A DNA stretch of 63,480 nt, counting the filler, from Reclinomonas americana ATCC 50394 (lineage: Eukaryota), in assembly GCA_048213135.1 (NCBI GenBank). It is 9 parts of 9 records of this genome, joined end to end, with 100 filler letters (N's around TTAATTAATTAA, not from the genome) between each part and the next. Parts side by side here need not be neighbours in the genome. Positions count along the whole stretch, not along the records: positions 1 to 14,946 come from AFZH01019600.1; 8 more parts are not named here. One strand, written 5' to 3'. Of this stretch, positions 9,116-54,059 are shown in pieces (position 1 is the first letter of the stretch; every line of letters begins with the position of its first letter). Below the pieces are notes generated by a model. It was not told where the DNA came from and searched no databases. It saw only the letters and a list, made by a program, of their open reading frames with translations. Both the position numbers and the translations under genes were made by a program.

Positions 9116-10493
9116 ATGGCAGCTGCATCAGTGGGCGAGGGAGAGAAGAGTGCATCGCGTGAGCAGGTGGAGCTCATTGCAGCTGCGGATGAGTTCTTTC
9201 GCGTGTCCACACCTCCACGTTGCACAGACGAGGTCTGTGTTTGTGCAACAGCACGCGCGCTTATCTCCTTCACTGATGTGCACTCTCTTTCGCTGCATCA
9301 GCTGCGGCAAGAGGTGGAGGCCTTTTGCAGCATGCACGCTGCGAGTGGTCGCCGATTGGTGTGTGTGACCAGTGGAGGCACCACTGTGCCTCTGGAGCGC
9401 AACACTGTGCGCTTTATCAGCAACTTCTCGTCGGGGACACGAGGCGCAGCCTCAGTAGAGTTAAGAGAGAGACACGCACACACACAAAGAGAGACTTTTG
9501 TGCTCATTGATTGATATCTTTTGATTAGGTACTTTATCCGAGCTGGCTATGCTGTGGTGTTCCTCAATCGACGCTTCTCGATCCAGCCCTATAACAGGCA
9601 TATTCTCGAGGCGAAAACGAACGTATTAGACTTGGTGCGAGTCGACGAGAGCGGGCGCATCGTTGGTGTGTGAGGGAGACATTGTTGGCGAGGCCAGGTG
9701 ACATACAATACCTACTGGTGTGTATTGCAGTGTCGGAGGAGACGCAGCATACGCAGTTCCCGCGAGTAGTGGCCGAGTACCACGAGGCCATGTCGCAGAA
9801 ACTGCTGCTGCGGGTGCCGTTTGAGACGGTGTTTGAGTACTTGTTCTTCCTGCGCGTGGTTTGTGAGGCGTTTGCGCCGCACGGTCGCTCGACCATGGTG
9901 TACTTGGCGGCGGCTGTCTCCGACTTTTATGTTCCCGAGGCAGCCATGGTATGCACGTGTGCGTGCGTGCCTGTGTCGTTGTTGTGGTCGTGCCCTCATG
10001 TGTGGCGCGCAGCCCGAGCACAAGATCCAGTCGTCGGCGGGACCGCCACCGATTGCGTTGCAGGAGGTGCCGAAGATGCTGCAGATGATTCGCTTTCGCT
10101 GGGCGCCCGAGGCCTATATTGTGTCCTTCAAGGTGAGGTTCATCGAAGAGGGGAAAGGAGGAGACGACGGCCTCACTCAATCGCGCCGCAGTTGGAGACC
10201 GACATTTCGTTGCTGGAGAAGAAGTCGCGCGACGCCATTGCACGGTACGACGTGAATAGCGTGGTGGCCAACATGCTGCAGAGCTACAAGGAGTGGGTGG
10301 TGGTGTATCGCGCCGACGGTGGCGAATCACGATTGTCGCGAGTAGATGGCGAGGAGCTGGAAAAGGTGCCTGCACAGCCGGCTCGTGCGCGAAAGCTGCC
10401 AACTCACGTGCATGTGTTTTTTTCCCGCAGCCCCTGGTGCACACGCTCGTGCAGTTTCACGACGACTGGGTCCTCACTGGCGAGACGACGTAG
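9116..10493 (+). CDS. PPCS: Phosphopantothenate--cysteine ligase
   Basis: [59 protein letters not shown]; several GT-AG introns. Confidence 0.92.
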
Positions 10494-10562
10494 CGGCCGG
10501 CACGACAGACGAAAACCAACAAAAACAATAAAATGCAGATTTTGGGTTCATTCGTTCATTCG

Positions 10563-12007
10563 TCACGCGTCACTCGAGGAACCCGATCCGCTACCGTACC
10601 CACCGAGGCCGAGCAGTGCTTCTGACGGCTCCGCACCTGCAACGCATAGCACGTCAGTGTCTTCCCCCGTGAGTGGAATTGACCATTGTGGTACACGCAA
10701 CTGACTGCCGACTGCACCGGCGGCGGTGGTGGCGCTTTCGGCTTCACCTGGATGGCGATCTTGACGCCGGTGGCCTTGGGTTTCGCCAGCACCAGTGTGG
10801 CGTTGCCGATCTTTGCTCGTTTCAGTGCCGGCTCTCCGCTGTCCGCTGCGCTCTCTTTGGCCATCTCCAGCCCCTCGGCCATCATCGTTCGTTTCTGCGG
10901 CCGCAACACGAGTGAGAAAAACACCGTTGCCAAAAAGGATCCGGTGCTGCATCTCCAACTCACCCTGCCCTCTCCAGCACCGTCGCCATCGTCGCTCTCC
11001 ACACGCTTCACAATCGGCTGGTTCTCCGGGTCAAAGTACGAGCGCGCCAGCATCTCATCCTCCATCTCGATGCGGGCCAGCTGTTCACGACGCGTGAGAC
11101 GACGATGCATTTGCAGCACAACGACAACACAGAACACTCACCAGCTCCTCATACTTTTTCCGGTGCATATCGAGCAGAGTGTCCGTGTCGACGCGCGCAT
11201 GCAGCGCATTCATCGAGCGGATCTCGTCGAGCTTGTCCAGCATCTCTGCAACACATATGAGTTCAGCAAGCAGCCTCAACACAATGTGGAGACCAGCACG
11301 CACCCATCTCCGCCTTGGAATCAATCGTCCGACTCTCCAACAGCTTCATCGCATCGACCTCGTCCAACTTGGCGCCCGCCTCACGCTCCAGCTCCTTCTC
11401 GCGATGCTCGACCCACGGCTCAAAGTTCCGAATGCACCCCGCCTCCGCAATGTAATCGCTGTTCTTCGGATCGGTCTTGATCGTGAACTCGCCCGCACAC
11501 ACCGGACACCGCATGTAGAAGCGGAAGATGCGCAAGCCGAGGTAGTCCTCGCCTTGCACGGTTTCCTTTCGCATAGGATGAGCAAGCTGCATTGAGACTG
11601 TGTGTGTGTGTGTGTGTTGTCTCGAGCAGACCTTTCGCGAGTTGAACTTTTTGCCTGCGCCCATGTACTCTCCACACGTGGAGCAACGCAGACTCATCGG
11701 CAACATCATGCGCACAGTGACTTGCATGTCTTTGGGTCGCCGAGTGCGAGGCACAAGTGCCGGCTAACAAAAAACAAGTGAGAGAGAGAAGTAGTCACTC
11801 AAGAGGGAGCAAGCGCGTAACATCAAAGTCCGCTGCAGTGAGAGAGAGAGAGTGAGCAGAGAGAGAGAGAGAGATGCATTTTCGCGCGCGCGCAACGCAA
11901 CGTGGATAGTACTTTTGAATAACCTGCGCTCACACACACGCACAATGGTCAGTAACGCACACACTCTCACACTCTCACGCACACAAACGCACCTTGCGCT
12001 CGCCCAT
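10563..12007 (-). CDS. YJU2: Splicing factor YJU2/CCDC94 (Cwc16)
   Basis: Spliced MGERK|VIQKYYP|PDFD|PALVPR...VRMMLPMSLRCSTCGEYMGAGKKFNSRK|ETVQGEDYLGLRIFRFYMRC...KTDPKNSDY. Confidence 0.92.
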
Positions 12008-12236: not shown

Positions 12237-14570
12237 ATGTTGGGGGGCGCCAGCGGTCACTCCACCAGCGGTCTTCCTGCCGGTTTCTACCGCACAACTG
12301 TCGAGTATCGTGTGCGCATTACGCGCGTGCGACAGCAGATTGTGCGATCAGGTGAGTGAGAGTGAGAAAAAGTTGACTGCACTCTCTCCTGTCTCTCTGT
12401 CTCTCACGCGCATTTGTGCGTAGACTGGGTGCTTCCCGAGCGCTACGAGCTCACCTCTGTGCTGGGCTCTGGCGCATTTGGTGTTGTTGTGTTGCGTTGT
12501 TTTCATCACACAGTGTCTTTCTTTGTCTCTCTGTGTGTGTGACTCTTTGTGTGTCGCAGTGCGGCGCTTGATAAGGAGAGTGGGCGACAGGTGGCTGTCA
12601 AACGCGTGGAGAATGCCTTTCGCTCGGCCGCAGAAGCCAAGCGGTTTGCCTTTGTCACTCTCGCAGTCAACCCCCCATTCTCATCCTTTTTCTGACACAT
12701 ACACACACAGCTTGTTGCGCGAGTTGAAGATCTTGCGACACATGCATCATGATAACGTGCGTCGCCTTCTCGTTGTATATATCGACAAGGTCGACATTGA
12801 CATTTCTTTTGCGTGACAGATCATTCGACTGGTCGACATGGCAAAGCCGACTGCGTATGCCGATTTTCGGCACTTGTACTTTGTGTTTGAGCGCTGCCAT
12901 GTCGACTATTCCACGTTGCGACTCTCGTGTCCGTTGATATCGGCCGCTCTCGTCTCTCATGCGGCGATTGCAGGGTGCTCAAGTCGCCGGTTCCCATTAC
13001 GGAGGATCAGCGACGGCGCTTCCTCTATGAGATGTTCAAGGCGCTCAAGTACATTCACTCGGCCAATGTGCTCCACCGTGACCTGAAGCCCGGTAATATT
13101 CTCACTACGGAGGAGGGCGCCATCAAGCTGTGCGATTTTGGGCTGGCGCGCTCCGTCAACCATCAGGGCGAGGATCGGTCGTCGCCCGAAATGACCCTCT
13201 ATGTCGTTGCGTCCCTGTTGCCGTGGTGTCTGTATCTCTGTGATGCTTACTCTCTAAGAAATTCGAATCGTTAGGTGACACGGTGGTACCGTTGAGTATC
13301 TGTACGCTTTGTCTCGTGCGTGCGTCAATGTGTGCTCACCACAGGCAACCTCGCACAGGCGCTCCGGAACTGCTGCTGTTCTTTTCGCGATACACCACAG
13401 CAAATATCCTTATCGTTATCATCAAGCTTGCTGCTCTTCTTCTTCTTTGTCTCCGTCCTTGACTCACAGCTCGGGCGTGTCGCACTCGACGTGTGGTCGG
13501 CTGGGTGCGTGAACTTCCTGTTTCTCCTTCACTCCGCCTCCGCCCTTGCACTGAACAACTTTTTCCGTGCAGTTGCATCTTTGCCGAGACGTATTTGCGG
13601 TCGCCGCTCTTCCCGGGCTCCACTCGTTGCGTTTCTCCCCAACGCCCACTTCTCCGCCTCCGCCGTCATTTGTCGCTCACTGGCAGAGTGCAGAGCTCAA
13701 CCAAATCACCACCGTGTTCAACCTGATCGGGACACCGAGTCAGGAGGAGGTTGATGAGATTGGCTCGGCAGAGGTTACGTGCATGTGGTTCGACTCGTGA
13801 GTCCGGCGCGGTCGTCCTCATCTCTCTCTTCGCACAGGCAAGACAGTGGCTGTCTACGCAACCGAGGAAAGCACGGAGCTCATTCGCAGCCAAGTTCCCA
13901 CAAGCGCCAGACGAAGGTACTTGCTTCATCATCGTCGCAGTCTCCTTTTTCTTCACGTGGTTCTCATCTTGTCCGCGGCAGCCATTGATCTGCTGGAGCG
14001 CATGCTGGTGTTCCACCCGTCGAATCGCATCTCGGTCGACGACGCTCTTGCGCACCCCTATTTTAGCTCGATTCGTGATCCCGCGTCGGAGACTACGGCG
14101 CCCAGCACGCTCAACTTTGAGTTTGAGCAGCAGGACTTGACGCAGGAGACTGTCAGAGGTCCGTCTCTTTTTTTTTTTTGCCTGGCGATGTGTGTCTCTT
14201 CCCCTCTCATCATGCCGCAGAACTCATCTGGCACGAGATCGCGTCGATGCATCCCGACCTCGTACCGCTCGGACCCACACCACCGGAGGGTGCCGCCGCC
14301 ACCGACGCTCCTCCCGAGGTGGAAGCCGCCGGTGGCTCCGGTTCCGCGCCACCAGAGTCGGACGCAGACACCGGAGCCACTGACGACGGCAGCTCCAGCG
14401 CAGCGGCCGACGGCGGCGGAAGCAGCAGCAGCGGCAGCTTCCTCAGCCCGATTTTGCCCACGCCTCCGCCACCGCCCATGGCGACAGATGCGGGCTCGCC
14501 ACCAGCGGACCCGCTGTCGCTTTCGTCGTCAGACTACGCAACACCACCGCCGCCTCCAACATCCGTGTGA
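12237..14570 (+). CDS. Mitogen-activated protein kinase (TLY activation motif), Pro/Ala-rich tail
   Basis: GSGAFGVV, AVKR, LRELKILRHMHHDNII, HSANVLHRDLKPGN, DFGLAR, MTLYVVTRWYRAPE, YTTAIDVWSAGC, RISVDDALAHPYF. Confidence 0.92.
13404..13485 (+). other. U12-type (minor spliceosome) AT-AC intron
   Basis: 5' ATATCCTT at 13404, branch-like TCCTTGAC at 13456-13463, 3' AC at 13484-13485. Removing it restores YTTA-I-DVWS. Confidence 0.9.
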
Positions 14571-14946: not shown

Positions 14947-15046
14947 NNNNNNNNNNNNNNNNNNNNNNNNNNNNNNNNNNNNNNNNNNNNTTAATTAATT
15001 AANNNNNNNNNNNNNNNNNNNNNNNNNNNNNNNNNNNNNNNNNNNN
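14947..15046. other. Assembly gap linker (44 N + TTAATTAATTAA + 44 N); also at 19833-19932, 21932-22031, 30961-31060, 36969-37068, 53901-54000, 59151-59250, 61645-61744
   Basis: Identical 100-nt structure eight times. The 12-mer places stop codons in all six frames. Confidence 0.97.
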
Positions 15047-37068: not shown

Positions 37069-40051
37069 ATCTCCTGTTGGCTGTTGCTTACTGGCAGCAC
37101 AGGGAGTCAAGCGGTTGGCGAAAAGTGGTGCAACGATGCGGCCTTCAAGCTACCGCTCTCCCGTAAGGAACTTTTGGCGGTTTTGCGCTTGCGTGAACCA
37201 GGCTCTTGGACTTCCTTGCGTCTGGATGAGTGTCTCCATCACATGGATCGCTTCCTCGTGTATACTACGCAAAAGGTGTGTGTTTGTAGCGCGACGCCGC
37301 GGTACTTGTTCCACGGTAACTCACAGACAAAGGACAGACGGCAAGTGCGGAAGGCGTCGCGACACTGAGCGTTGTTCCACCACTGGCGGAGTGGCTTCGC
37401 GATCCGAAGAGTCACAAGTTCAACTGCAACCTGGAGGAGAGCGAGCGACGTTTGATGAACCAGACGATCGTCTCGGCTCTGTGGTTGCAATTTGCACAGC
37501 AGTGGCACGATTGCTGGCGAGCAAAGGGTCCTTCAGTTGCGTGACGAGATCCAGCTCTCCTGCCGGCCACTCGATGGCGCTCACCGCGAGGTCGTGCACA
37601 GACAAAGGAGGCGCTTGACGCCGTGGTCGCAGAGGCACGAGATGTGTACAGATTTGAGTACCAGTACATCGCACAACTGGACGTCCACATGCCGCGTGTG
37701 GAAAGCCAGGGCTCCGAAGTGTGCGAAACATGGCGCTCGTTGGTGCGTGGCTCGCGACGCAATCGAAGCTCGATCTGCAACTCACAAGTCGCACTTCCTG
37801 CAGGCACGCCTTCTCCTGGATATTTGGAAGCTGAAGAAGCCACATCGCCTGCACTGCAAAGAGGACTTGCTCAAAATCGTAGACGAGTATCAGCAGCTGT
37901 TGGTGCCTCTCGGATTGTACGCAAAGTACTGTGCGCTAGGTTCGAGAAGCATCCGAGTGGCTTGTTGATCATTATCTGTGTCTCACCGCCCGGTTCTCGA
38001 TCATACAGCTCCGGCAGACGATGTCAATGTCTGGCGCGATCAGTTCGACGAACTCCTCCTTTTGATGCAACCGTACTTATTCACGGTGGACCGCGAAGAG
38101 TTCCATGCGTTGCATAGCTTCCTTGAGCACTTCCCGCTTGTGGCCTCTTCGTTCGCCAAGTGGCAGCACCTGCCGGCAGACAACGCTCCGTTCATCCAAC
38201 TGTTGCACCTGGCTGGTCACGGGTTTCAGATGTGCGAGTCGCGAACCATGGGCTACACTCCGCTGCACTGGCTGTCACAGTCCGGCCAGAGTGCCATGGT
38301 GGAGCAGCTGCTGTCGTTGCAGCCGTCAGATACGGATCGAATTCGCTTGACGACTGCGCGATTGGGCGAAAGCGGCGACACCCCTCTGCATGTCGCCGCC
38401 GCCAAGTTGCGTCTTCCCACACTGTTTCGTCCACATACATTTGTTCTCACCGCGCCATCTTGTCAGTGGTCACGTGGATGTGGTGCGCAAGCTGGTCGAC
38501 TTCAAGGCGGACATGCACGATGCAAACTACGCTGGCAAACTGGCCAGCTGAGTGCCCACTTTCCTCGTAGATGCCAGACGTGCGTTCTTGGACTCACATT
38601 TATTGTTTGCTGCAGTCCACGTGGCCGCGCGACAGAACCACGTTCCGGTGGTCCAGTTCATGGTGGAGAGAGACCATTCGCTCCTGCTGGTGCCTGACGA
38701 CAAGAACCACAATGTGCTTGCCGTCGCCGTGATGTGGGGTGCGTGCACCTCTTGCAGCTGGTGAACTTTGACTGCTGCTGTTTTGCTGAAGCGCGAATGT
38801 TGTGCTCCTTTGGTCGCCGCTGCACAGGTCGCTTGGAGATGGTCAACATGCTGTACACCGTCTACGGACACGATGACTTCATGCATGCACTGAATCAACC
38901 GTGCGTGCAAGCCTTGCACTGCCATTTTGCGCAATGTGATTTCGTTTTTTCTCATGGCGTTTAGCAAACCAGTGACACGTACAACCGCAATGGATTTCAC
39001 GTATGTGTAAGCTGGGAGTCCGAAGGCAATCTGCAGACGGCGGAACGCCTCCTCCAAATTGCCCCCAGTCTGCTGTGGTCGCGAAGTCTGCAGGGCGGCG
39101 CGTCGCATTTCGACATTGCTTACGGACCGCAGCCGACGTATCCTATCGAGTGGGCCGCCAGTAGTTTCGTGAGCACAGCTGTTATTTGTGGTGGTGTGTG
39201 TTTTCGGCAGTGCGTTCCTCACCGACGTTGTTCGCCAGTGGGACACCCGCGCATGATGTTGTTCCTCCGCGAGGAGATGGAGCGAGAGCCGCATTGCGCA
39301 GAGTACCGCGCCGAGGTTACAGACTTGGAGCACTTGCTGATTGTTGCCAGCTGTCGCTGCAAAGCGCACTTCATGCAAGCCATGGTGGACAAGTTTGGCG
39401 AGCTGTGCGTGCGGGACGCCCGCGATACCGACGGGCACACACTTTTGCACTGGGCCGCCTCGGCTAGAGGCTCGGTGGAGCTGGCACAGTGGCTGTTGGA
39501 GAGACGCTACGAAGTGCCGCTTATCGAAGTGTTTGACAACAAAGGAGCCTCGGCGTTGCGTGTCATCGTCAACAACGCCCTCTGCTGTTGCTCACGTTGG
39601 TCACCAATGTTGCTCAGTGTGCACAAGGCCGCTGCCTCCGGCAACTATGCTGTCCTCAGCTTGTTCCTGACGAGTGATCTAGTACCTGAGTCGGTGCTCC
39701 GCTCAGTCACTCGCGACTGGAAGTACACGGTGCTGCACTCGGCCGTTTTTGTGTCGCGACGCAACACTGAGGTGTGCTGCTGCGAGTCCCGCGTGCGTTG
39801 TTTGATTCATGTGCGTGACGAACCCTATGCTTGCGCAGGCAATTGTTATTTTGCTGGCTATGCGATTCCCGGAGATGATGCAGGCTCGCGACCACAAAAA
39901 CCTCAAGCCTCTGGAGGTCGCTCGAAACAAGAAGCGCTTCGGGCCGAATAGTGCACTAGCTGCCGACATTGAGCGAATGTTGCGCGAGCGCGAAGCTGCT
40001 GCCGCTGCTGCTGCTGCCGCCGCCGCTGCTGTTTCCGGGGCGACCGAATGA
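37069..40051 (+). CDS. Ankyrin-repeat protein (5' end in gap)
   Basis: GYTPLHWLSQSG, GDTPLHVAAANGHVDVV, GHTLLHWAASARGSVELAQWLL, VHKAAASGNYAVL, YTVLHSAVF. Confidence 0.85.
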
Positions 40052-40087
40052 AATGAAAAAAGTACCACACATGTCTTTATCTATTAA

Positions 40088-43000
40088 TCATCTGGGGACG
40101 ATAGGGTTCATCTCTAGCTCTGTATCTGGCGGCGCCGTTGACGAAGCCTCATGGTCCGTCGAGTCCGACTGGCCGTCAAGCAGAGGCGTGGACAGTCCCG
40201 TTGACATAGACTTTGACAGCAACACGCCCGTCGGTTCCTGGTCGTCGGCAGTCGCAGCCACCGCGGCAGCCGCTGCACTGCGTCGGCGCTGAATCCGTCC
40301 CCTCACAATGTCGTAGATGCGACGGACGGTGTTCATCCACTTGAAGACGATCGGCAGTGCCACGATGAAGGAGCCGATGGAGAGAACGCAGAGGGCGGCG
40401 ATTCGCTGAAAGTCTGTCGAGAGACGATTCGAAAACAGCACTGCGATGATGGTCAACGTGACCAGGCCAACCGTCTGCAGCCCGCTCACGCGTGTTAGAG
40501 AGACAGAGATCACTGATCAACTGTCGTACTTGTAAGAACACGAAAAAAACGCAACCTCCAGTTTGTTGTTACGCGACAGAGCGTACGCTTGCAGGCGCAG
40601 GTGGATGGCGAGGAATGCCTGCACCGCACGTAACTTATCAACAAAACAAATACTACGTGAGTGGTGCAAACGATGGGCGGTACCATGCAAACGGCCCACA
40701 ACGCGACCGGGATGATATCCAACTGGCCACTGGCGGCGAGTGGGAACAGCACGCCAATGACGACGAGTCGACGGATGAGCTGGTATCCCTGATACCACAC
40801 GTATGGCTGCGTAGTCACATACACCGTAAGAGACAGACGATCAATCACGACAACGCTCGGCGAGATACTCACGCGGCGGTAAAAGTTGTAGAGCACGCCA
40901 AAGCGAAGGCGAGTCTGGCACACGCACACGGAGATCAGAGACAAGCAAACACATGGCAACTCTCCATTCCGACATCCCCCCGCAACTCGTTCATCCTCGA
41001 GTCGCTTGCTGCGGCGTAGCCAGAGGGTCCAGACGATAATCAGCACCGGAATTAGGAGAGCAATGACGAGGAAGGCTCCGAAGAGTGGTCTCAGCGACGC
41101 CCAACTGCGTGCGACGCGCGATGTGATTGCGGAGCGGAACGTGCGTGTACGAATGACAAAGAACGCAACTGCGCATCACAGCGCACACTTGGCACAAAGA
41201 GGAGTACTCGCTCGGAGCCAACTTGCGTGCACGTGAAAAACGTGACTGCTGTCTCCACGATGCCTTCGTACACGCCGATTCCGAGGACCACAGTCGACAC
41301 AATGTACCTGCGGCGGCAAGCACATTCGTCCTCAGAACCCACAAGTTTTCGTAAAAAAACGACCTGCATGCAAGTGCGCACCGATCGATGCTGGCCCGCC
41401 GATATACCCACGAAGCGAATGCGTGACCGCGAGGGGTCACTCTGGCATCACCCCACCAATTTCGCCGCAGCATCAACCAAGCGGAGAAGCGGTGCAAGCC
41501 GTACGTGAACCACAGGAAGAACACATACATGGCCGGCGACACCAACCGCATCCCAAGTTCACCCAGGCCGTCAACGTAGAAGGGGCACCGACCCTGGAAG
41601 AAGCGCGGAAACCAGTACTTGACAATGCGGCTCAGCGTCAACAGTGTCACACTCGGGTAGAAGAGAAGGGTGGCCGTCTGTTCACACACAGGATAAGCGG
41701 CAGCACAAACTGCCATGGTGGAGATGACACGATGCGAACCTGCAAGGTAAACAGGAACATTTCGGCAGCCGCCTCGCTGTACGCACGTGCACGAAATGTT
41801 TAAGATGACTTGGCAATAAGGTGGCCATGTCAGGGACCCCATTTTTTCTCTCTCTCTCACGCACCTGCCACCTCGGAACGCGGCAACGGTGAACACGGCA
41901 ATGCCCCACATCTGGCAAAGTGCGTGTGAGCAGCTGCTGCTCGTTGCTCTCTTTTCAACATTCGTACCTTAAGCAACAGCATGGCAATCTCGTACGCAGA
42001 TGGCGAAGTGCACTCCACGCACTCCGAGTTCCACTCGGCGTACCCGCTCTGCACAAGCACCACCTCAAATCAATCGCGATTCGAAAAAATGAGGTCAGGG
42101 CGCGCCACAATCCCTCGATACACAACAACGCAGGTGCCGCAGAGTGGAGTGTTGCTGTCACGGAAGCTGTCGGCGCGACAGTAATCAGCACCTGGTGCGT
42201 AAGGAGTGGCTCCGGCATCGCCCACGTCGCAGAAATCGTAGGGACACAGATAGGTGGTGATGGGAAGCGGTGGTGGTGCGTTGACGGCGAGCGGGAAAGC
42301 CCACCGCGTGCTGCTGACAGTCACGTCGGGTCCTCCGTAACATGTCATGCCGAGAGGGCACGGCTGATGCCAGTGCAGTGAGATGCGTTCGTTGATGAGC
42401 ACACGAAGAACGAAAGCAACTTTCGGCTTACAAACCTGACATGATTGCTGAGTGAGCGAGAACTCGCCACGAGGGCACGCCTGACAGCCGACACTGTCCA
42501 CGTATTCTTCTCCGATGGGACACGGGAGAATCCCCAAATTGAGAGTGGGTGGTGCCGTAGAAAACGCCGCATTGACACTCTGCACCGCGATGTTAAACGT
42601 GGAGCTCTGTCCCGCAGAAGGCGCAACCACGGGAAGTTGGAAGGTGGCCACGCCGTTGGTGGTGGCCTCTGTGATATGTGCCGACTGCATAATACAGAGA
42701 AAAACGAATGAAAAGAACAGCGAAGAAAGGCCCTCACACACACGCTCCAACGAGACCTGGTTGGTGCACGCCGGGCACGACACTTGCAACACCCACCCGT
42801 CCAGAGACGAAATCGGCGATCCAAACACATCGAGGACATGCACATCGACTGCGCGTGTCTCCGTCACCGAAGGTGGCATGGAGCCTTCGGACGACTGTTG
42901 GAGTGTGGCGGCGGCCGTGTACGGTGCTGCAGCCAGAGGTAATTCGTGAGCGCCGAGAATGCACACGCGTGCGTGTGTGTGTGTATGTGTGCGTGTACGC

Positions 43001-46000
43001 AACAGGTCGCAGTGTTGTTGCCGTACTGAGCCACATTGCCGCTGAACGATAGCCCCAGCAGCGTGGCCCAGTTCGGCGACAGGGCCTCCACGAAGCTGTG
43101 CATGACGTCGAGCGACGACGGATCACCCAGCGCGTTCCAGAAGAGCGCACCGCCACCACCGCCACCGACAAGGTCTCCAGCGCCCGTCAATACGGCAGAG
43201 TTGTTCACAAACTGTGACTGCTGCAATATCAAGCCCAGCGCCACCACATCGCCAGGTCCGACACTCCACTGCTCCGCATCAAGGGCGGTCATGTTCACAG
43301 AAATGGCGCCACCGCGAAGCGCGCTATTGCCAGTGAATGTGCATCCCATTACTGCAGCTTGCAAACTGGAGGAGAGAGACATGGCGCCGCCGTCACCCGC
43401 GAACGCAGTATTCCCAACAAAAGATGAGCCCTGCAACAGTAGTGACCCAGTCCCGGTTGCCATCAGTGCACCGCCCACATTCACGGCCGCGTTGGCGTTG
43501 AACTGCGAGCCGATGATGCGGACAGTCGACTGATTCTGCACGTATGCGGCAGCACCTGAGGCAGCCGAGTTGCTGCTCAGCTGGCTGTTGGTAACATTGA
43601 CAAATGCGGTTTCGGTGATCGACAATGCGCCACCAGCTTCGGCCGACGACAACTGCGCCGACGAGCCAGAAAGCTGGACAGCAGACGCGCCACCGGCATA
43701 CAGCATACCGCCCTGCAAGTCGGCCGAACCTTGCAAAAATGTGCTGCCGGTATCTGTGTTTGCGAGTACATCGTTTCTCAGCCGGTGCCAGTCATCATCT
43801 CACATGCATCAAACTGCGCTGTGTTGATTACCTGTCCACGTGCTGAGACCGGCCATGTACACGTGCCCGCCATTGGTGGACGCACTGTTGGAGAGCAAGC
43901 GACATCCGTTGCTGGAGATCTCGGCCAGTTGCTCGGCAAACACACCACCGCCGCCAAGCTGCAACGCCGACACGCACATCATGATGAGAAAGACAGAGAC
44001 AATCAAATGTCACCACCAAGACTGAACGCACCGTGGCCACATTACTCTGCAGCAGGCAGTCGGTGAGCGAAAGTTGCGCGGAACCGGTCACATATGTCGC
44101 GCCACCGTCGGCCTGACAAGAAATGAGCGCACAAGTAGCGTGTGCAAAAAAAGTGAGGCAAGGCGTACGCACCGACGTTGCGGTGTTGTTGACCAGCTGC
44201 ACGTGGGTGAATGAGGCGACGCTCAAGTCGGCCAAGAATAAGCCGCTGCCGAACTGCGCCCGATTGTTCTGCAGAATGGAGTCGCTGGCGACCACCGACG
44301 CGGACGAGGCAGAGAAAATCGCACCGCCGAATTCGCCGGCCTCGTTGTTCGACACCTGGGTGTTGGATGACAAGACGACTTGCGACGATGACGACGCGTG
44401 GATAGCGCCGCCATTCAGTGACGCGCGATTGTTCACCAACTGGCAGTTGGAAAACGTGATTGCGGAGTCGATAGCGATGAGGGAGACCGCGCCGCCAAGG
44501 ACTGCTGCACCGTTAGCCAGCAGTGTGTCTACAATTGTGGTATTCGTGGCCACCGACACGGCTGCAATGCCGCCGCCGCCGGTGCCGCCAACGGCTGTGT
44601 TGGACAGGATCCTGCAAGACAGGATGGAGCCACCACGACCAATGAGACCGATTCCACCACCGCCAGTTGTGGAAGTCACCGTACTGTGTGCAACAGTCAG
44701 TCGTACGAATCGACGCGAGCACGGGTGCGGGGAAAGAGCATGGCGAAACTTGGAGACGATTGAGGCCCATCTGAGCAGTGAATTGGTGCCGAGGAGGACC
44801 GCGCCACCGGCAGCAGGGCCAAGTGGACTCTGCACCACATTGTACATGAACGTGCTATTGTGGCACAAAGATTGTGTGTCGAGAAGGAGTGCTCCGCCTG
44901 CGCAGCGGTGGCCGAAGAAAGGTGAGCAGTCGGTCGCCCACACAAAGCACGCGCAAACACATTCGCCACCTCCATTGGAGTGGCCGGCGCTGATTGCCGT
45001 CGACGACAGCTGCAGCGAGTTGGACAGGAATGTGCATGCAGTAACTTTTGCTCCATTGTAGGCCAGCAACGCACCACCTGCACACATTCACGGATGCACG
45101 TTAGGTTTCACGAGATCTACAAAGCGGTTGCGCACGGCACACGTACCGCCATTGCTATCGCCGGAGATGAAGTGAGCAGTCGTGTTGACAGACACGCGTC
45201 CACCAACACCCGGATCAATGGCGATGTTGTAGAGGAAGGTACTGTTGGTGATGGTCGTCCCGCCCTCCGGCACAGTCATTCCGCCTGCGATTCGACGAAT
45301 GCCGTAAAGTGAGCGGGACGGCGAGCCAGACAGAGGATTGCCAATAGCGACTCACCACCACCGTTGTGATTAGAGCCACGAGAGTCAACGCTGTGCACAC
45401 ACAGAGAGAGAAAGAGATATGCCAGATGAAAAAACAAGAGAGCCAAATCAGAAAGACAAGGACAACAACACAACACACCGCGCAAAGTCTCCACCGGCAC
45501 CATCGCGGATGCTGTAATTGGTGGTGAACGTTGAGTTGACGATGAGAAGCAGGTGATTTGCATTCTCGTAGGCGAAAATGAGCGCGCCACCTGCGAGCGA
45601 GCGTCAAGTCACCGACGACGCAAGTTTACGAGAGAAGGATGACGCACCGCCGCCGTTGAAGCCGCCCAACGAGCTGCCGAACTGTTCCGCATAATCGCCT
45701 CCGCTGCCGTTGTCCATCGATGTGTTGTTGTAGAAGACGAGCGATGACAGAGTCTAAGCAGGACAATGAGAGATATTGCCAAACAGCTCCTGAGCGAAAC
45801 ACAGGTGCGTCTACCAAATTGGAGGCACCGGAGATGCCCAACAACAGCCCTCCGCCGCCGTTCCAGCTGCTGTTCGACTGCCCAAGCAAACTGTAATTGC
45901 CGCCACGGCCGTTCTGAGTGGCCCGGTTGTTGGCAAAATACAGATTTGACAGCGTCGTCTGCCACACCACACAAGTCAGTGGTGCGTACGATAAAGCAAA

Positions 46001-49000
46001 TATTGGCCCACAAAAAAAACTGTACCTCGTAGTTGGTGAGCAGCAGCATTGCACCACCGCCGTTCGAGTTTTGCGAGGCACTGGCTGTGTTGCCGACCTC
46101 TCGGAGTGCGCCAGATCCATTCCCGATGGCAGCGTTGTCGAGAAACGAGGTTCTCGTAATCGTCTATGCGAACCACGCAACAACTCAGCAAGTGATAGAC
46201 ATACTCTCGACACGCGTGCATTTCGCACTGACCAACGTGCCCTGCGACCTGTAAATTCGGTGGTGTAAGAAACAGAACGAGACGAGCGACTGCGATGCCG
46301 AAGAACGGAAAGACGCAACCCACGCATGTACATCCAGAGTGCGCCTGCAGAAGAAAACACAGTAAACAACAACAGTGAGCACGGCATCAACAGATTCCGA
46401 TCGTCGTTCAGCAAGACTTCTCACCGCCCCCCGTCTGTCCTGATTCGCTGTTGCCACCGAGTACGTTACCGTTGCCGCCGACTGAGCAGTAGATGACTGA
46501 ATTGTTGCGAAATGTGCAATCGTACACGGTCTGGCGATGCTGCACATGAGTACGAAAGGCGGGAAGGAGTGACACACACATACAAACCATATATCCGGTG
46601 GTCCCAGAGCCAACAAATGCCGCTCCCTGCAACGTCGTGAGATGCCGGATTGTTGTGTATGCTCACGCGCAGAAACAGAAGAAACAAACACAACTCCTCC
46701 GACACTGCCGTTGTTGGCAAATCCCGCGCCGTTGACGGTGTTGGTTCCGCCACGATTGTGCCATCGTACAATGTTGCCAATCCACGTGATGTTTGCCATG
46801 ATCTGCGTTGACGAAGGTGGAGAGTTACAAGAGCGGCACGCATGCAAGACTATTCGTTACCGTGGCACGGTCCACAGCACATACCAACGCAGACGACGAT
46901 GCCGTGTAAAAGTACAAGCCGCCACCGCCTGCCAACACACAGTCAGTAACACACAGTCTGACCAGTAGTGCGAACACACTCACTCACCTCCGTTGCCGGC
47001 TGACGCCGAACTGTCGGCATAATTGGCATTGCCGCCACTGGCACATGAATCGACGAGGTTGTTATTGATTGCCGAGTTGTACATGAACTGCAATGTGTGT
47101 GTGCGCGCGAAGTAGGTGAGATTTCTTATCTCTGGGGCACTCGTCCCCGACATACGCACGAGGCTGCCGCCAGTCTGGAAGTCGCAGTACAAAGCGCCGC
47201 CACCAACTCCAATGGCGTCCGACCCTCCGGTTCCTGAGTTATTGTTTCCACCATTGCCGCTCGTGGCCACGATATTTGCCGAGAACTCGGAGGCCGTAAC
47301 GTTCTGCGTCGAGTGCGCAGAAACTGAGGATGACAGAGAGAGAGAGGGACGGACATGCGGATACGGATCGTGACGCAGCGCACCATTTGGCTTGGGCCGT
47401 TTTGCGTGTAGAACAAAATGGCCCCACCGCCGACCGAGTCCGTGTCACTGTTGCCTCCCTGGAAGCAACCGCTGCCGCCGTTGGCGGCGTTCACCACCGA
47501 GTTGCCGAGAAACTGCGATGACTGCACATACTGTACAAGAGAGAGCGTCAATAGGCAGCCATGCAGCAGCCGTGATCATGCAAAGACTGGCCAACCATAC
47601 TTCCACCGGCGAGGCAGTAACCCATGAAAGCACCGCCTCCGGCTTCGGAACCCAGAGCGTTGCAGCTGCCGGCTTGAGAGTACGGACCACCGCAACTGCG
47701 CGTAGCCACGGTGTGAGTCGTGCAACCACTACCGTTAGCGAAGCATGGATGGCCACGACGCACGCGATGTTTTGCACAGTGTTTGACGAAAACAGGGAAT
47801 GCGTAACGTACTGCGCGTGGTTGGAGTGATCATCAGCAACCAAGCAAATATGCAAATGAGTATCACAAGATTAACACGCACGACCACTGTCGGTCCGTTG
47901 AACGACGTCAAATAGACTGCGCCGCCTGTGCGTCACACGATGTGTAATGTTTTTCAGCACTCAGCGCATGTATGTGCAGCACAGACGAGGGAAACAACAT
48001 ACCACCAAGTGCAGAGCCTTGCGAATCACTGGCTCCGTTGTTGGTGGAGCCACCATTCCCGTTGCCACTGGACTCGTTGGCAATGAATTCCGAGTCCGAA
48101 AACGTCTGCATGATTAAGCGGTGAACAACAGAGTAGAGCTCACACAGAGTGCACCTGTCAAACACGAACCAAAATGCCACCGTAATTCATGTTCAGGTAC
48201 ATGGCCCCTACGCGCATGACAGAGGAAAACACGCGATGAAAGCGTGCGCGCGCACAAATGCGCACATGTATATATACACACCTCCACCGCTGAGACCACC
48301 AGACGCGGTGACCATGCCTGTGAGCCCATTGAAGGAGCCAGCCGAGGCGTTTCCGTTGGCCTGGTTGCTACGAAATGACGACCCCGTAACCTGGATACAC
48401 GCACGCCTCTCGTTGGCAACGCAAAGCGCAGGCAGTACGCGCAAAAGCACCAACTCTGACCGTAATGTTGCATGGACCGTCGACACACGCAGCCCACAGT
48501 CCACCGCCGCCGGTGAAAGTGCTCGGGATGTACGGGACTTGACCGATCTGCTTGCCTCGATGCAATCAACACACCACTGCTCGGAGAATACCCAGAGGTA
48601 ACAGCAACGCAACGACATCGCCGTGTCCGTTGTTCTTCGATCCACCGATAGCTGTGCGAGACAAGGTGCACGGATGAACGCACGAACCGATGAGGAATGA
48701 AATTGGAGCCAGACGATCACCATTGTTGTTGGCAGCATTCCCCACAAAGGTGCAATTGGCAATCTGTGCCGATTACGTAAGCAAGAGGGATCATGAAACC
48801 AAATGCACATTCCACAGATACACACCGTCATGGCCGCAAGACCGTCGACCCACACACCACCTGATCGCAGTCATTGGAGACGAGTGAGTGTGGATAGCAG
48901 ACGCGTAGGATTGGCGGACACGCGCACACACCGCCACCGCATTGAGAGCCCGAGTTCCCGTCGCCTAGAATGTACGAGCCTCCACCACAATTGTTCGAGG

Positions 49001-50931
49001 CTGCGTTGCCACTGAATGTGGAGCCTGTCATCGTGAGCGTTCCGCCCATTGGGTCCGTGATGGATATGTACATCGCCTGCGGCACCGCACACCAGCATCA
49101 GAGCGCCATACCTTGCAACACGCACACATGATCAGCTCTCTGCAGTCACTCAACTCCTCCACCCGACAGCTGGCCACCAATGGCGGCCGCTCCAGTCACC
49201 GTACACATTTTGGTCTGTCCGATGCAGTTCATGCCGTTGGAGTTGCCGGTGGCGAGATTTTGCGTAAAGGTGGAATTGGTGATGGTGAGTGCCACACAAT
49301 CTTGGGAGAAAATGGCTCCGCCGCCATTGCTGGCACTCCCGATATTGGTGATTGCGGGAGCTGCAATGCCACAATTCACCGCCACGTTGTTTGCAAACGT
49401 CGACGAGGTCACCACTGTCGTGGTGATACCACCCGTGTACTGCCACGTGAAGATGTTGCGCCGCGAGTGAGCAACAAACAAGGAACCGAAAAAAAGAGCG
49501 CGTGCGAGTCAGCAAACCAGTGCTCCGCCACCGCTGGCATCGCCCGCCAGGTTGCGCACCAGGTTGCCGACAAATGTGGAGTTGGTCACTGCCAGAGTGA
49601 TGGAGCTGCGAATGAATACAGCGCCTGCCCGAGGGAACATCAATCGGTGAGCAGCTGCAGGAACGACAACATACGTGCGCGTGCACGCAGACTGACCTCC
49701 GCCGGTAAACATCTGCGTCTCGGTCCCGTTGCCGACGGCCGCGTTGTTTTGGAAGCGACACGAAGTGATGACCACGTTGCCGGAAAGGTACGGGTTTGGC
49801 AAGTACACGGCACCACCCGACGCACCAAGGCCCTGCAGCACAGAGAGAGAGAGAGAGAGAGACAGTCGTGAGGAGCAGAAGGTCACACTGCATCGCTGCT
49901 TCCGCCTCTCCCCACCGTGGCCGTGCAATTGGTAAACGTGCTCTGCGACAGGGTCACCATGGTGTAGTACGCCGGCACATGCAGTCCACCGCCACCGATA
50001 CCGTTGCTGGTGGACGAATGCGAAAACGAGCAACCCGACACCGTGAGCACCAAGGGGGCGATCGGCGCCGGCATCATTGGCACCGTGCCGATTGTTAGCG
50101 GACTCAAGGCGCCATTTGATCCGCTAAAGGTGCAATTGACTACTGACACCGTCAACGGCGTGGCCAGTGTTGCCAAGGGCAGCAACTGTACCTGCCCGCC
50201 GAGCACCGTCAGTCCCTGCATGGTGATCGAGCCCGTGGTGGTCGTGGCCGTCATTGCCAAGCCACTGGCCTGGATACTTGCGGACTCCGACACCGCCATC
50301 AGTTCGATGGTGGCCGCTGCACATCGACGACACCATCGTCAGCACCAGCAGAGGGAAGTGACAGCACACACACACACACATGCATGCGTGACACACCAGT
50401 GACCGCCAGCTGATAGTTGTCACTGGTCAAATCGTAGAGGCCGCTGGTGAACATGATGGAGAGGTTGGCCGTGGGACCTGCTGTTCCGCGACTCACACAC
50501 GCTGCATACGCCGAGCGGATATCACACGCCGAAGCCAGCGGTGTCGCCGACACACCGCAGGTGGCGGCATCAGTGGCGCCTCCGGGAGCCACATACACTA
50601 ATCCACGCACATGCACACACACACACTGTTGAGTTGCGAGTGTGCGCGCGTACGTGCACACATGCAACACACACGCACCAGTGCACTGCTGCTGAGCAAG
50701 TACGCCTCCCATGACGCACAGCAGTGCTGATAGAATGAGCAGGTCGCATTGCCTTCGACGCCACCGGCGGCGGCGACCATGCCGTTCTTCCGCCACCGCC
50801 TTCTGTGCGATTACGCAACAAACGTGGTCAGCACGCAAGGGTACACGCACATACACACACAGGCAAAGCAAGAAGAGGAGACCTGCGCATGCATCGGTGG
50901 TGAGCGGAGACGTGACAATCAAGTCCTGCAT
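40088..50931 (-). CDS. Giant surface protein: polymorphic-membrane-protein-like beta-helix repeats (GGA[IL]/FxxN), Cys-rich region, multi-TM C-terminus
   Basis: Many FxxN...GGA motifs (NNRASLNGGAIH, NNEAGEFGGAIF, GNTAFAGDGGAM), then CPIGEEY...CQACPRGEF, LCGTC..GYAEWNSECVEC, then several hydrophobic helices. The start is uncertain. Confidence 0.75.
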
Positions 50932-51040
50932 CGATGCGGACGTCAGTCGTCTCTTTCACCGTCGCGATGGCCACGAGTGCATCCCAGCAGCACGTTACGT
51001 GTGCTCTCTATCTCCCAGTCGATCTCCTCGCTAAACCCTG

Positions 51041-52916
51041 TTGTTCCTTCGTCCTCTTCAGACCTCTCCTCATGTGCGACTTCAATGGCAACAAGCCGAG
51101 TCTGTGGTGCTGTTGGCCTGGGCGCGCGCAATGCCTTTCTGTGAGGGTGAGGAGCAGTGTGACGAGCACGCTGTGCGCATGGCCGATGTGACCATTGTCG
51201 CGGGAACGGTTGGTTGGCGAGAGTGCTTCGGTGTGGAAGATGAATTGCTGAGAACACACAAGTACACACACAGGAGGGCACTGAGCTGCGAGCACACTCA
51301 CTGGTGCTGGTGATGCGCTCGCCCTACTTTGCTGCCATGCTGGCCAACGGCGATGGTTGGTGTCATCATTCTCATCCATGTTGTCTCTTTCTTACTCATC
51401 GACATGCCGACAGAGTGGTCCGAGGGTGCTCAACGGCGCATCGAGAAGCGCAATGTGGCGACGCCAGTGATGCGCCAAGTACTGCGCTTCCTGTACACGG
51501 GCGCGGTGGATTATGCCTTGTCGGAGGTGTTTGCGCTGATGGCGGCCTGTGATGAGATGCGAGTCACGGAATTGTGGGAGCACTTGCTTGGAGTTGTCTC
51601 GCAGCGCATTGGAGTCGACACGGCGGTGTCGTTCTTGGAGAATGTGGATATGCTGGGGCCAGAGTTTGATCGCATCCAGCGCGACAGTTTGCTCATTGTC
51701 AGCAATCAAACATGCGAAGTGCTGCTGACAGACGCTTTCCTGCGGTGCTCGGTCGCGACGCTGATGCGTCTGTTGCTGCTCGACGAACTCGATGCCGACG
51801 AGGTCGATTTGTGGAGAGCCTTGTTGGCCTGGGGATGGTGCGTGTGGTGCACGTCGCTGCGATGGAGAATCATTTTCCTCGTGACACTCAACCGCGCGTG
51901 TAGCACACAGTGTGGAGTGGCAGTGGGCAAGGAGGTGGCGGAGTGGAGTGAAACGGAGCGGTTGCGGATTGCCGAGGTGTGTGCGGAGCCGGCTACTGCC
52001 ATTCGCCTGTATCACTTGCCGCGAGAGTGGTGTGTTATGGATATGAGAGTTCCCTGTCGTGATGTTCCAAGCTAATGCTTTCCTCTCCTCCGCCATGCGT
52101 ACAGCGTGCGCGAGGTGAAGCTGAGTCGTATCTTCCCTCCGCAACGGTACCTTTGGTGGACGGACTACTTGGCCGCCCCCGACCTGTTCCACGACGAGGT
52201 TGTCCCTCCGCCTCGCCTTCGACCACCGGCACTGCAGCAGCCGGTGCGCCCACCTGCTGCTGCGGTTGAGTCCCTTAGGTGGAGTGATGAGCTGCGTGGC
52301 AATCTGTATCGCGTGTCGCCCGATGGAATGGAGGCCACATTCACGCACAACGCACATGCCTACATTGGCTGCGTGGCCACGACGCCGTTGCCGGCAGGTC
52401 CCAATGGTGTGTGCGAAATACGATGTCACGTGCCCGCTGGCGCTGCGCAGTACTTTATGCTGGGCTTTTACGACGGAGCAAAAGTCGGCGAGATGATGAA
52501 TGTGAACTCACCGCATGGAGCAGCGAGTGGGCTGTTCATGCTCTGGCACACATCGTTTCCGTCGCTCCAGATTGCGGTGCGTTGATGCACGCATATGTTA
52601 CATCTTTTTCTTCAATGGTCACTGACCGAGGTTCGACTGCAGAACGGTTCGGCGCTGTCGCTCGCGCGCAGCAGCCCGGTGACGTTTGTGATCGACCAGC
52701 GACAAAAGACGATTGTGGCGCAGAGCAGTGGCATGGCTGAGGTGAGGTGCACGTGGGGTTTCTTTTCCCGACAGCGATGACGATTGCTGATAGATTGGTT
52801 GACAGCGAATCGATGACCGAGTGCCGAACTGGGTGGTACCGGACGATGTGCGCCTGTGCTACCTGGGATACACGCCGCAGCTGGCCATCAGGCTTGAGTG
52901 TGTCCGAGTATCGTGA
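51041..52916 (+). CDS. BTB/POZ-BACK domain protein with beta-rich C-terminal domain
   Basis: ADVTIVAGT|EGTELRAHSLVLVMRSPYFAAML...VLRFLYTG, LDADEVDLWRALLAWG. The start is uncertain. Confidence 0.8.
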
Positions 52917-53160
52917 GTGCAGTGTGGTGCGCCACCTTGCATTTTTGCATGTGTGTGGCGGCGTGTCAGTGCCGCTGCACCGACGAGGGATCGACCCGCG
53001 CGCGCACTGTGGTGCGACAGTCTTTGTAGCGTGCTGCTGTGACACTAACCAGCAGGAGGATGCACGACACGCAGAGACTTTGTGGTTTCGCACGCGTGTT
53101 CATATAATAACAGTCGACAGGCTGTGCTTCGCCAACTGGGAAGTCGCTTGAGTTTTTTTT

Positions 53161-53877
53161 TTACGCTTCCGGTACAAAGGCAATGGCTGCCCGCAGGTCG
53201 GCCGCAAGCCCTGCCGTCTGGAAGTTCTTGAACTTGTACCTGCATGCATGAACCAATCGTGAGTGACGGGGTTATACGAGAGACGGCGTGGTGCATGCGG
53301 AGACGCACACTTTGCCGGTGCCAAAGTCGATTGTGGTGATGGCATTGTTCGTGGCGTCCGTGCCAATCTGCAGTCGGCACATGTCAGCGGTGCAGTGATC
53401 AGAAATGTGCGTGGTTGTGTCGCTCGCAACAGCAATCCTGCCAAAGTCCGCCAGGTTGATGTTGAACGAGTACTTGGGGTTGATTGGCGACTCATCCTCC
53501 GTCCTGTGTACACGTCACCACGTTAGTCACCGCTGTGCAGTGCATTGCAACAATATCGATCACTGACATGCATTTGCTCACCACGAGACACTCAGAACAT
53601 TGGGCGTGAGAGCGGCACGCTCCAGCCACACCCAGCGCGTCTGCCACTTCTGTGAATGTTTGAAGCATGAGTGTGATGCACGTGGTGGTTCAGGAGGTAG
53701 GCGCGTACGAACATTCTTCAACTTGCCACCGAGCTTCTCGACCTTGTCCTTGGAGAGCCAGGCCTTGCGCTTGTTGCCCAGCAGCACCGCGATGTTGCCC
53801 TGTCCAGCGCCCACAAAGTCTTCTTCCTCCTCATCCTCATCCTCGGCCCCCTCCTCCGTCTCAAAGAAGCCGAGGGC
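53161..53877 (-). CDS. C-terminal PH-like domain of a gene truncated by the gap
   Basis: Spliced KAWLSKDKVEKLGGKLKN|KWQTRWVWLER...LSVSW|TEDESPINPKYSFNINLADF...KVYKFKNFQTAGLAADLRAAIAFVPEA*. Confidence 0.55.
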
Positions 53878-54059
53878 TGCATGATGACGGAAAATGCATA
53901 NNNNNNNNNNNNNNNNNNNNNNNNNNNNNNNNNNNNNNNNNNNNTTAATTAATTAANNNNNNNNNNNNNNNNNNNNNNNNNNNNNNNNNNNNNNNNNNNN
54001 GAGAGAGAGAGAGAGAGAGAGAGAGTGAGACGAGTGAGAGGAGAGAGAGAGAGAGAGAG

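Follow-up and report, generated by a model that had tools for sequence, protein, structure and literature searches.

A stretch of 82 bases in a MAP kinase gene begins with AT and ends with AC, and the question it raises is whether it is a U12-type intron, removed by a minor spliceosome that the same genome encodes. From the sequence evidence, this is highly probable, by the mechanism set out below. The window analyzed (63,480 nucleotides, filler included) consists of several contigs joined; the runs of N around TTAATTAATTAA at 14947-15046 and in seven comparable gaps are linkers. Its first contig is C4133, and C4139 occupies positions 37069-53900. The gene and its parts nearest to the 82 bases are the following:

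12237..14570, + strand: MAP kinase gene with 14 exons and a TLY activation motif, the start codon and the 3' end of intron 10 being predicted with less certainty
13359..13403, + strand: upstream exon of 45 nt (APELLLFFSRYTTA)
13404..13485, + strand: predicted U12-type AT-AC intron of 82 nt, intron 8 of 13, phase 1, splitting the Ile codon of A-I-D-V-W-S
13486..13504, + strand: downstream micro-exon of 19 nt (IDVWSAG)

Among the best 60 solved-structure matches of the largest exon, 59 are MAPKs, and TLY precedes VVTRWYRAPE in the kinase domain, as expected for the TxY loop of a MAP kinase. The 12 remaining introns are all GT-AG and range from 59 to 72 nt. Besides the 19-nt micro-exon, the gene contains another one of 16 nt (13275-13290). 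With intron 10 as modelled (13626-13693), FPG and QL are separated by 2 residues, versus 5 in 35 of 35 matched homologs; the intron may have a different 3' end, or the loop may be shortened. Two genes adjoin the MAPK gene in the window: one at 11263-11763 (-), which by its motifs may resemble the splicing factor YJU2/CCDC94, and one at 9595-10704 (+), presumably similar, likewise by its motifs, to phosphopantothenate-cysteine ligase.

Within the 82 bases, the following signals were found:

13404..13411, + strand: U12-type 5' splice site ATATCCTT, with positions +5 to +8 complementary to the 5' end of U11
13456..13463, + strand: U12-type branch sequence TCCTTGAC, with the putative branch A at 13462
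13466..13469, + strand: ACAG, in which an AC and an AG lie 5-7 nt downstream of the branch A
13484..13485, + strand: AC at the 3' end, the nearest AC or AG that lies over 7 nt past the branch A

The donor ATATCCTT at 13404-13411 agrees with RTATCCTT, the 5' splice site of the U12-type AT-AC subtype, and TCCTTGAC pairs at 7 of 7 positions, one of them G-U, with the arm GUAAGGA of the U12 candidate described below. The sequence-only reading had placed the 82-nt intron at exactly 13404-13485, and the signals that it named are there (ATATCCTT at 13404-13411, TCCTTGAC at 13456-13463, AC at 13484-13485). It had also called them U12 consensus signals, and the donor, the branch sequence and the AT-AC ends do have the U12-type form. 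The distance from the branch A to the 3' end of the intron, 23 nt, had passed unremarked there. A short branch-to-3' distance in U12-type introns is a tendency and no absolute rule. In human, the optimum given in the available part of PMC3584512 is 11-13 nt. The AC and AG within ACAG (13466-13469) are predicted to be passed over for lying too near the branch A, and the use of these ends would insert 6 residues or need a non-consensus donor.

When 13403 is joined to 13486 and the next GT-AG intron (13505-13572) is also removed, the product is YTTAIDVWSAGC. Excision of 13404-13485 restores the MAPK motif YTTAIDVWS, alone among the excisions considered, and retention of the intron leads to a frameshift, with the protein truncated at 252 aa. 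We enumerated donor/acceptor pairs with GT-AG, GC-AG, AT-AC, AT-AG, GT-AC, AT-AA and AT-AT ends, of which 23 are in frame and free of stops. The sole GT-AG pair among those 23 (13415-13469) adds 9 residues and does not restore the motif, in line with the earlier statement that no GT-AG solution gives the same protein; the best GC-AG pair (13400-13469) adds 4 residues, also with the motif not restored. From 120 homologs, 34 cover the intron region. The spacing from APE to DxWS is 12 residues in 28 of these 34, matching the AT-AC junction, and YTKAI is read in 19 of them. In a profile built from 24 homologs, the AT-AC junction scores 408.8 bits versus 392-397 bits for five alternative junctions (the best one with 396.8).

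These comparisons bear on two other ways of splicing the region. It could be an ordinary major intron, starting at the GC of 13400 or the GT of 13415 and ending at the CAG of 13467-13469, with the kinase gaining 4 or 9 residues. Both options keep the frame without stops, the CAG is preceded by a pyrimidine tract and by CTTGAC, a possible U2 branch site, and the GC option has 70 nt, inside the length range of the other 12 introns. However, the score falls by 12-16 bits, the conserved AID motif is broken and the perfect ATATCCTT and TCCTTGAC are left unexplained. The other way keeps the AT donor and takes the proximal AC (13466-13467) as the main acceptor, which adds six residues (KLGRVA). The resulting 64-nt intron is in frame, but this AC is just 5 nt past the branch A, the score is 13 bits lower and none of the 34 homologs has 18 residues here, which makes this acceptor extremely unlikely.

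The assembly comprises two haplotypes, and a second copy of the MAPK gene is found on C4276. Two substitutions and a 3-nt indel set its intron apart; the donor, the branch motif and the 3' tail are identical. Over the 2.4 kb compared between the haplotypes, 13 of 13 indels fall in predicted introns; the 3-base indel of the C4276 intron is by itself no test of frame. In a paralogous MAPK gene (C77, allele C306), a 73-nt AT-AC intron interrupts this codon in the same phase and gives YSDAIDMWSIGC on excision, with a branch-to-3' spacing of 13 nt. The AT-AC ends of the paralog's intron, at that shared codon, also speak against the ordinary major intron, which we consider very unlikely.

The signals of the MAPK intron are not a product of chance, since the pattern ATATCCTT-N20-50-CCTTRAC has 83 matches in G000 versus 3 for the reversed control. 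The GT version of this donor-plus-branch pattern has 3 matches versus 2 in the control, and a gap of 51-80 nt gives 72 matches (70 AT, 2 GT) versus 1. Summed, the strict pattern has 158 matches versus 6 for the controls, and 153 of the 158 (97%) start with AT, a share that is probably overstated because the pattern missed a GT-type donor, that of the CENATAC gene, which has a looser branch motif; one AT-type donor was missed as well. Allele pairs, counted by eye, are ~32 of the 83 matches, which brings the distinct loci to roughly 60% of the counts. Of the 83, 79 have CCTTGAC as the branch motif. At 30 loci, the introns range from 68 to 92 nt and the branch-to-3' distance, as predicted by the first-AC rule, from 11 to 31 nt, being at least 20 nt at 7 of them. 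The alleles L008 and L022 have the same predicted junction at spacings of 12 and 20 nt.

We then come to the machinery, which the sequence-only reading had supposed to include U11, U12, U4atac and U6atac. Part of this stands: U11 and U6atac are above their cut-offs, U12 is below its own and U4atac was not found. The U11 gene scores 51.2 and 51.1 bits in the two haplotypes (cut-off 39), and its 5' end is the one complementary to donor positions +5 to +8. The U6atac gene scores 37.8 and 34.9 bits (cut-off 33), with the 3' stem-loop and the U-tail present and the donor box altered. The U12 candidate, located on two allelic contigs, surfaced solely at E<=10, with 26.5 bits versus the Rfam cut-off of 53 and a genome-wide E of 0.13. 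It is likely to be real: the branch arm GUAAGGA, helix I and the Sm site are intact, its helix Ia GAUC is complementary to the GGUC of this genome's U6atac, and a downstream 3' box is common to it and the variant U1 gene described below. The default family search of the genome returned no U12, and three pattern searches for it gave coding or chance matches among those inspected (30 of 52 in one search, 30 of 31 in another). A compensating C in U12 for the CCTTGAC branch motif was a wrong guess, the arm being canonical. For U4atac, the family search, in which 50 of 876 candidates from a fragmented assembly were scored, and a complementarity pattern gave nothing or chance matches.

Among the minor-specific proteins, for which the sequence-only reading had proposed a search, a CENATAC/CCDC84-like gene was found in both haplotypes, with three colinear Pfam matches. 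According to the part of PMC8280824 that was available, CENATAC promotes the splicing of AT-AN minor introns. On the reverse strand of L285 (~1685-1803; G000 C136), the CENATAC-like gene has an apparent GT-type minor intron, with the donor GTATCCTT and the branch-like motif CCTAAAC. Exon-by-exon genome searches for SNRNP25 and CRIPT, run without a positive control, were blank. The retention of a minor spliceosome, as claimed from the sequence, is supported by U11, U6atac, the U12 candidate and the CENATAC-like gene. By the rule stated in the available part of PMC10639083 (at least 3 minor introns and at least 2 minor snRNAs), and leaving its annotation-based condition aside, this genome counts as having minor splicing even without U12.

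The sole U6atac found reads ACCGAGAGA at the donor box. A core-pattern search of the genome for a second, canonical U6atac found none; it gave 2 matches, both alleles of the altered gene. The metagenomic U6atac-like genes flagged by a structure filter read AAAGGAGAGA in 28 of 28 cases, many of them redundant, in a partial scan covering 26 of 64 parts (117 stretches). Facing the AT-AC donor, the altered box pairs at +4, +5 and +8 and mismatches +6C and +7U, in the usual register. The gene (L001/L002 1501-1632; G000 C392, C1225) also has a GNRNA-like loop (GGGCA) in the internal stem-loop and, judged by eye, a possible 5-bp hairpin around the donor box.

It is conceivable that the boundaries and the recognition by U11 and U12 are as proposed while the catalysis is mixed, with U4 serving for U4atac or U6 for the altered U6atac. 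Such a mixture would agree with the poor fit of the altered box to the minor donors, with the failure to find U4atac and with the single type of U4, whose computed duplex has -23.5 kcal/mol with U6atac versus -27.3 with U6 (irregular, and calculated without a shuffle control). A pairing of U4 with U6atac is proposed for oomycetes in the available part of PMC11347168. On the other hand, U6 pairs the AT-AC donor still worse, the changes in helix Ia are matched between U12 and U6atac, and the assembly is fragmented, with few of the U4atac candidates scored, as given above. We consider mixed catalysis unlikely.

Two types of U1 were found, the canonical one (L067, C343) and a variant (L065/L066 1501-1654, C429/C479) with the 5' arm AUACGUAAC, which is one base longer and complementary to GTTRCGT donors. 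In the MAPK gene, the donors concerned are in the following span:

12491..13837, + strand: span with six GTTNNG donors (12491, 12915, 13206, 13291, 13626 and 13774) that fit the variant U1

In the first 9 bases of these six donors, 7-8 are paired by the variant U1 versus 3-4 by the canonical one, and the window has 44 copies of GTTGCGT, versus an average of 17 and at most 26 across 20 resamples. With GTTNNG donors in 6 of the 13 introns and AT-AC ends in 1 of 13, the earlier description of one MAPK gene mixing canonical, shifted and minor introns holds.

The altered U6atac box fits GTTRCG donors, which match the variant U1 too, and of the 7 MAPK donors that start with GTT, it pairs +5C and +6G in 5. 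Part of the minor spliceosome could have been re-purposed, with the single ACCGAGAGA U6atac joining the variant U1 and an ordinary U2 as the catalytic RNA for the GTTRCG introns, which are abundant, while still serving a near-pure AT-AC set. If true, common introns would be handled by a third, hybrid spliceosome, in a lineage within Discoba, where minor splicing is reported to be absent. We regard it as doubtful because most GTT donors have a U at +7 that the altered U6atac leaves unpaired, because the canonical U6, shifted by one base, would explain these donors equally well, and because both types of U2 keep, as seen by eye, the 5' end complementary to the 3' region of U6. These two U2 types (L088; L089/L090) score 114 and 85 bits and have the same branch arm.

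A CCCACAA motif, presumably akin to the plant USE, is found ~62-74 nt before the start of U11, variant U1, U6, U6atac, U2 (L088) and U4 (L277). The promoter pattern CCCACAA..TTCTTA is unenriched (16 matches versus 22 in the control); its matches recovered U11, the variant U1 and a C/D-like RNA, U12 and U4atac not being among them. This last RNA (L085/L086 from 244; G000 C5724, C9840) is encoded by a small RNA-like gene behind that pattern, with C-box and D-box motifs, and contains short stretches complementary to U6atac, with no Rfam match at E<=0.01.

For the U12-type AT-AC intron, the proposed sequence of events is as follows. The 5' end of U11 would pair with donor positions +5 to +8, and the U12 arm with UCCUUG(A)C, including a G-U wobble and leaving A 13462 bulged. 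The 3' end would fall on the nearest AC past some minimal spacing from the branch A; the spacing in this intron is 23 nt. Next, U6atac would take the place of U11 and pair with U12 in helix I, with three base pairs to the donor (+4, +5 and +8) rather than five. Against this mechanism are the U12 score below the cut-off, the U4atac that was not found, the U6atac mismatches at +6C and +7U, and a spacing far above the human optimum. The signals, the reading frame, the conservation in the second haplotype and in the paralog, the snRNA-like genes and their complementarity are there in the DNA, and from them we infer that the snRNAs are expressed and the intron is actually spliced, with A 13462 as the branch nucleotide and the 3' end chosen by the scanning rule. 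With its AT-AC bias, relaxed branch spacing and altered U6atac, the minor system of this genome looks like a variant machinery; the MAPK intron on its own adds one ordinary case to a known class. A natural U6atac short of two of the five donor pairs is a test of how much pairing is needed and of whether minor and major parts can mix, and the canonical, shifted and minor introns would bring three pathways into one gene, within 2.3 kb.

Regarding the host, a GspF-like gene with an apparent intron is found on the nuclear contig C40 (L279) and its allele C3723. The available part of PMC8134430 describes a full eukaryotic Gsp set in jakobids, heteroloboseans and malawimonads. The GspF gene with its apparent intron places the host among the groups with a mitochondrial secretion system (these three and possibly hemimastigotes), where a jakobid fits, as do malawimonads and heteroloboseans. 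The host is probably a jakobid. The HSP90 exon of the genome, with an identity of at most 78% to its matches and uninformative names among them, does not place the lineage, nor does the only eukaryotic COX1 contig (L093, G000 C14726), which has a 99% match to flowering-plant COX1 and is likely a contaminant. The megabase contigs C1 and C2 of the assembly look bacterial. Surveys describe minor introns and minor snRNAs as absent from Discoba/Excavata (PMC10639083, PMC11347168 and PMC10161547, in the parts available). A jakobid minor spliceosome is unreported in the article texts searched; species tables that accompany PMC8280824, PMC9887622 and PMC10639083 may be relevant here. Should the host be a jakobid, minor splicing has persisted in a deep branch, and its presence in the last eukaryotic ancestor becomes less dependent on the position of the root.

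That MAPK genes are recurrent hosts of minor introns, as the sequence-only reading stated, is in print. Minor introns are reported in ERK2, MAPK11 and JNK1 (PMC8199999), and JNK2, which has a hybrid intron, carries a U12 intron after exon 6 and a U2-type intron before it (PMC1874599), according to the available parts of both papers. No animal or plant MAPK intron boundaries were obtained from the available parts of PMC9887622, bioRxiv 10.1101/2021.09.28.462139 and PMC3728624. Animal MAPK minor introns resemble the present one in the host gene and in lying near subdomains IX-X. The JNK/p38 minor intron would lie one exon downstream of this position and would then be another intron. The V of VDxWS is probably split in phase 1 where JNK2 exon 6 begins, so that the U2 intron there, rather than the U12 one, would have the codon and phase of this AT-AC intron. 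In that case, the intron position would be an old one whose type changed in one lineage.

Compared with the U12-type AT-AC introns described in the available part of PMC3584512, the similarities are the conserved donor and branch, the AT-AC ends, the lack of a pyrimidine tract between the branch and the 3' end, and genes for U11 and U6atac, with a candidate for U12; the differences here are the 23 nt instead of an optimum of 11-13, the CCTTGAC in 79 of 83 matches, the ACCGAGAGA U6atac and the U4atac that was not found. In Blastocystis sp. subtype 1, also a protist, the minor introns are short and enriched for AT-AC (77%, versus 26% in human), and all four minor snRNAs are reported (available part of PMC10639083). 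Here, in contrast, AT starts 153 of 158 matches (97%, which is probably too high), and intron lengths are greater (68-92 nt at 30 loci). Finally, the coevolved U1 of Entamoeba and Mastigamoeba (bioRxiv 10.1101/2022.06.08.495308, in the part available) has, like the variant U1 of this genome, a 5' arm altered so as to fit an atypical donor, whereas here a canonical U1 and a variant whose arm is one base longer coexist, together with an altered U6atac.
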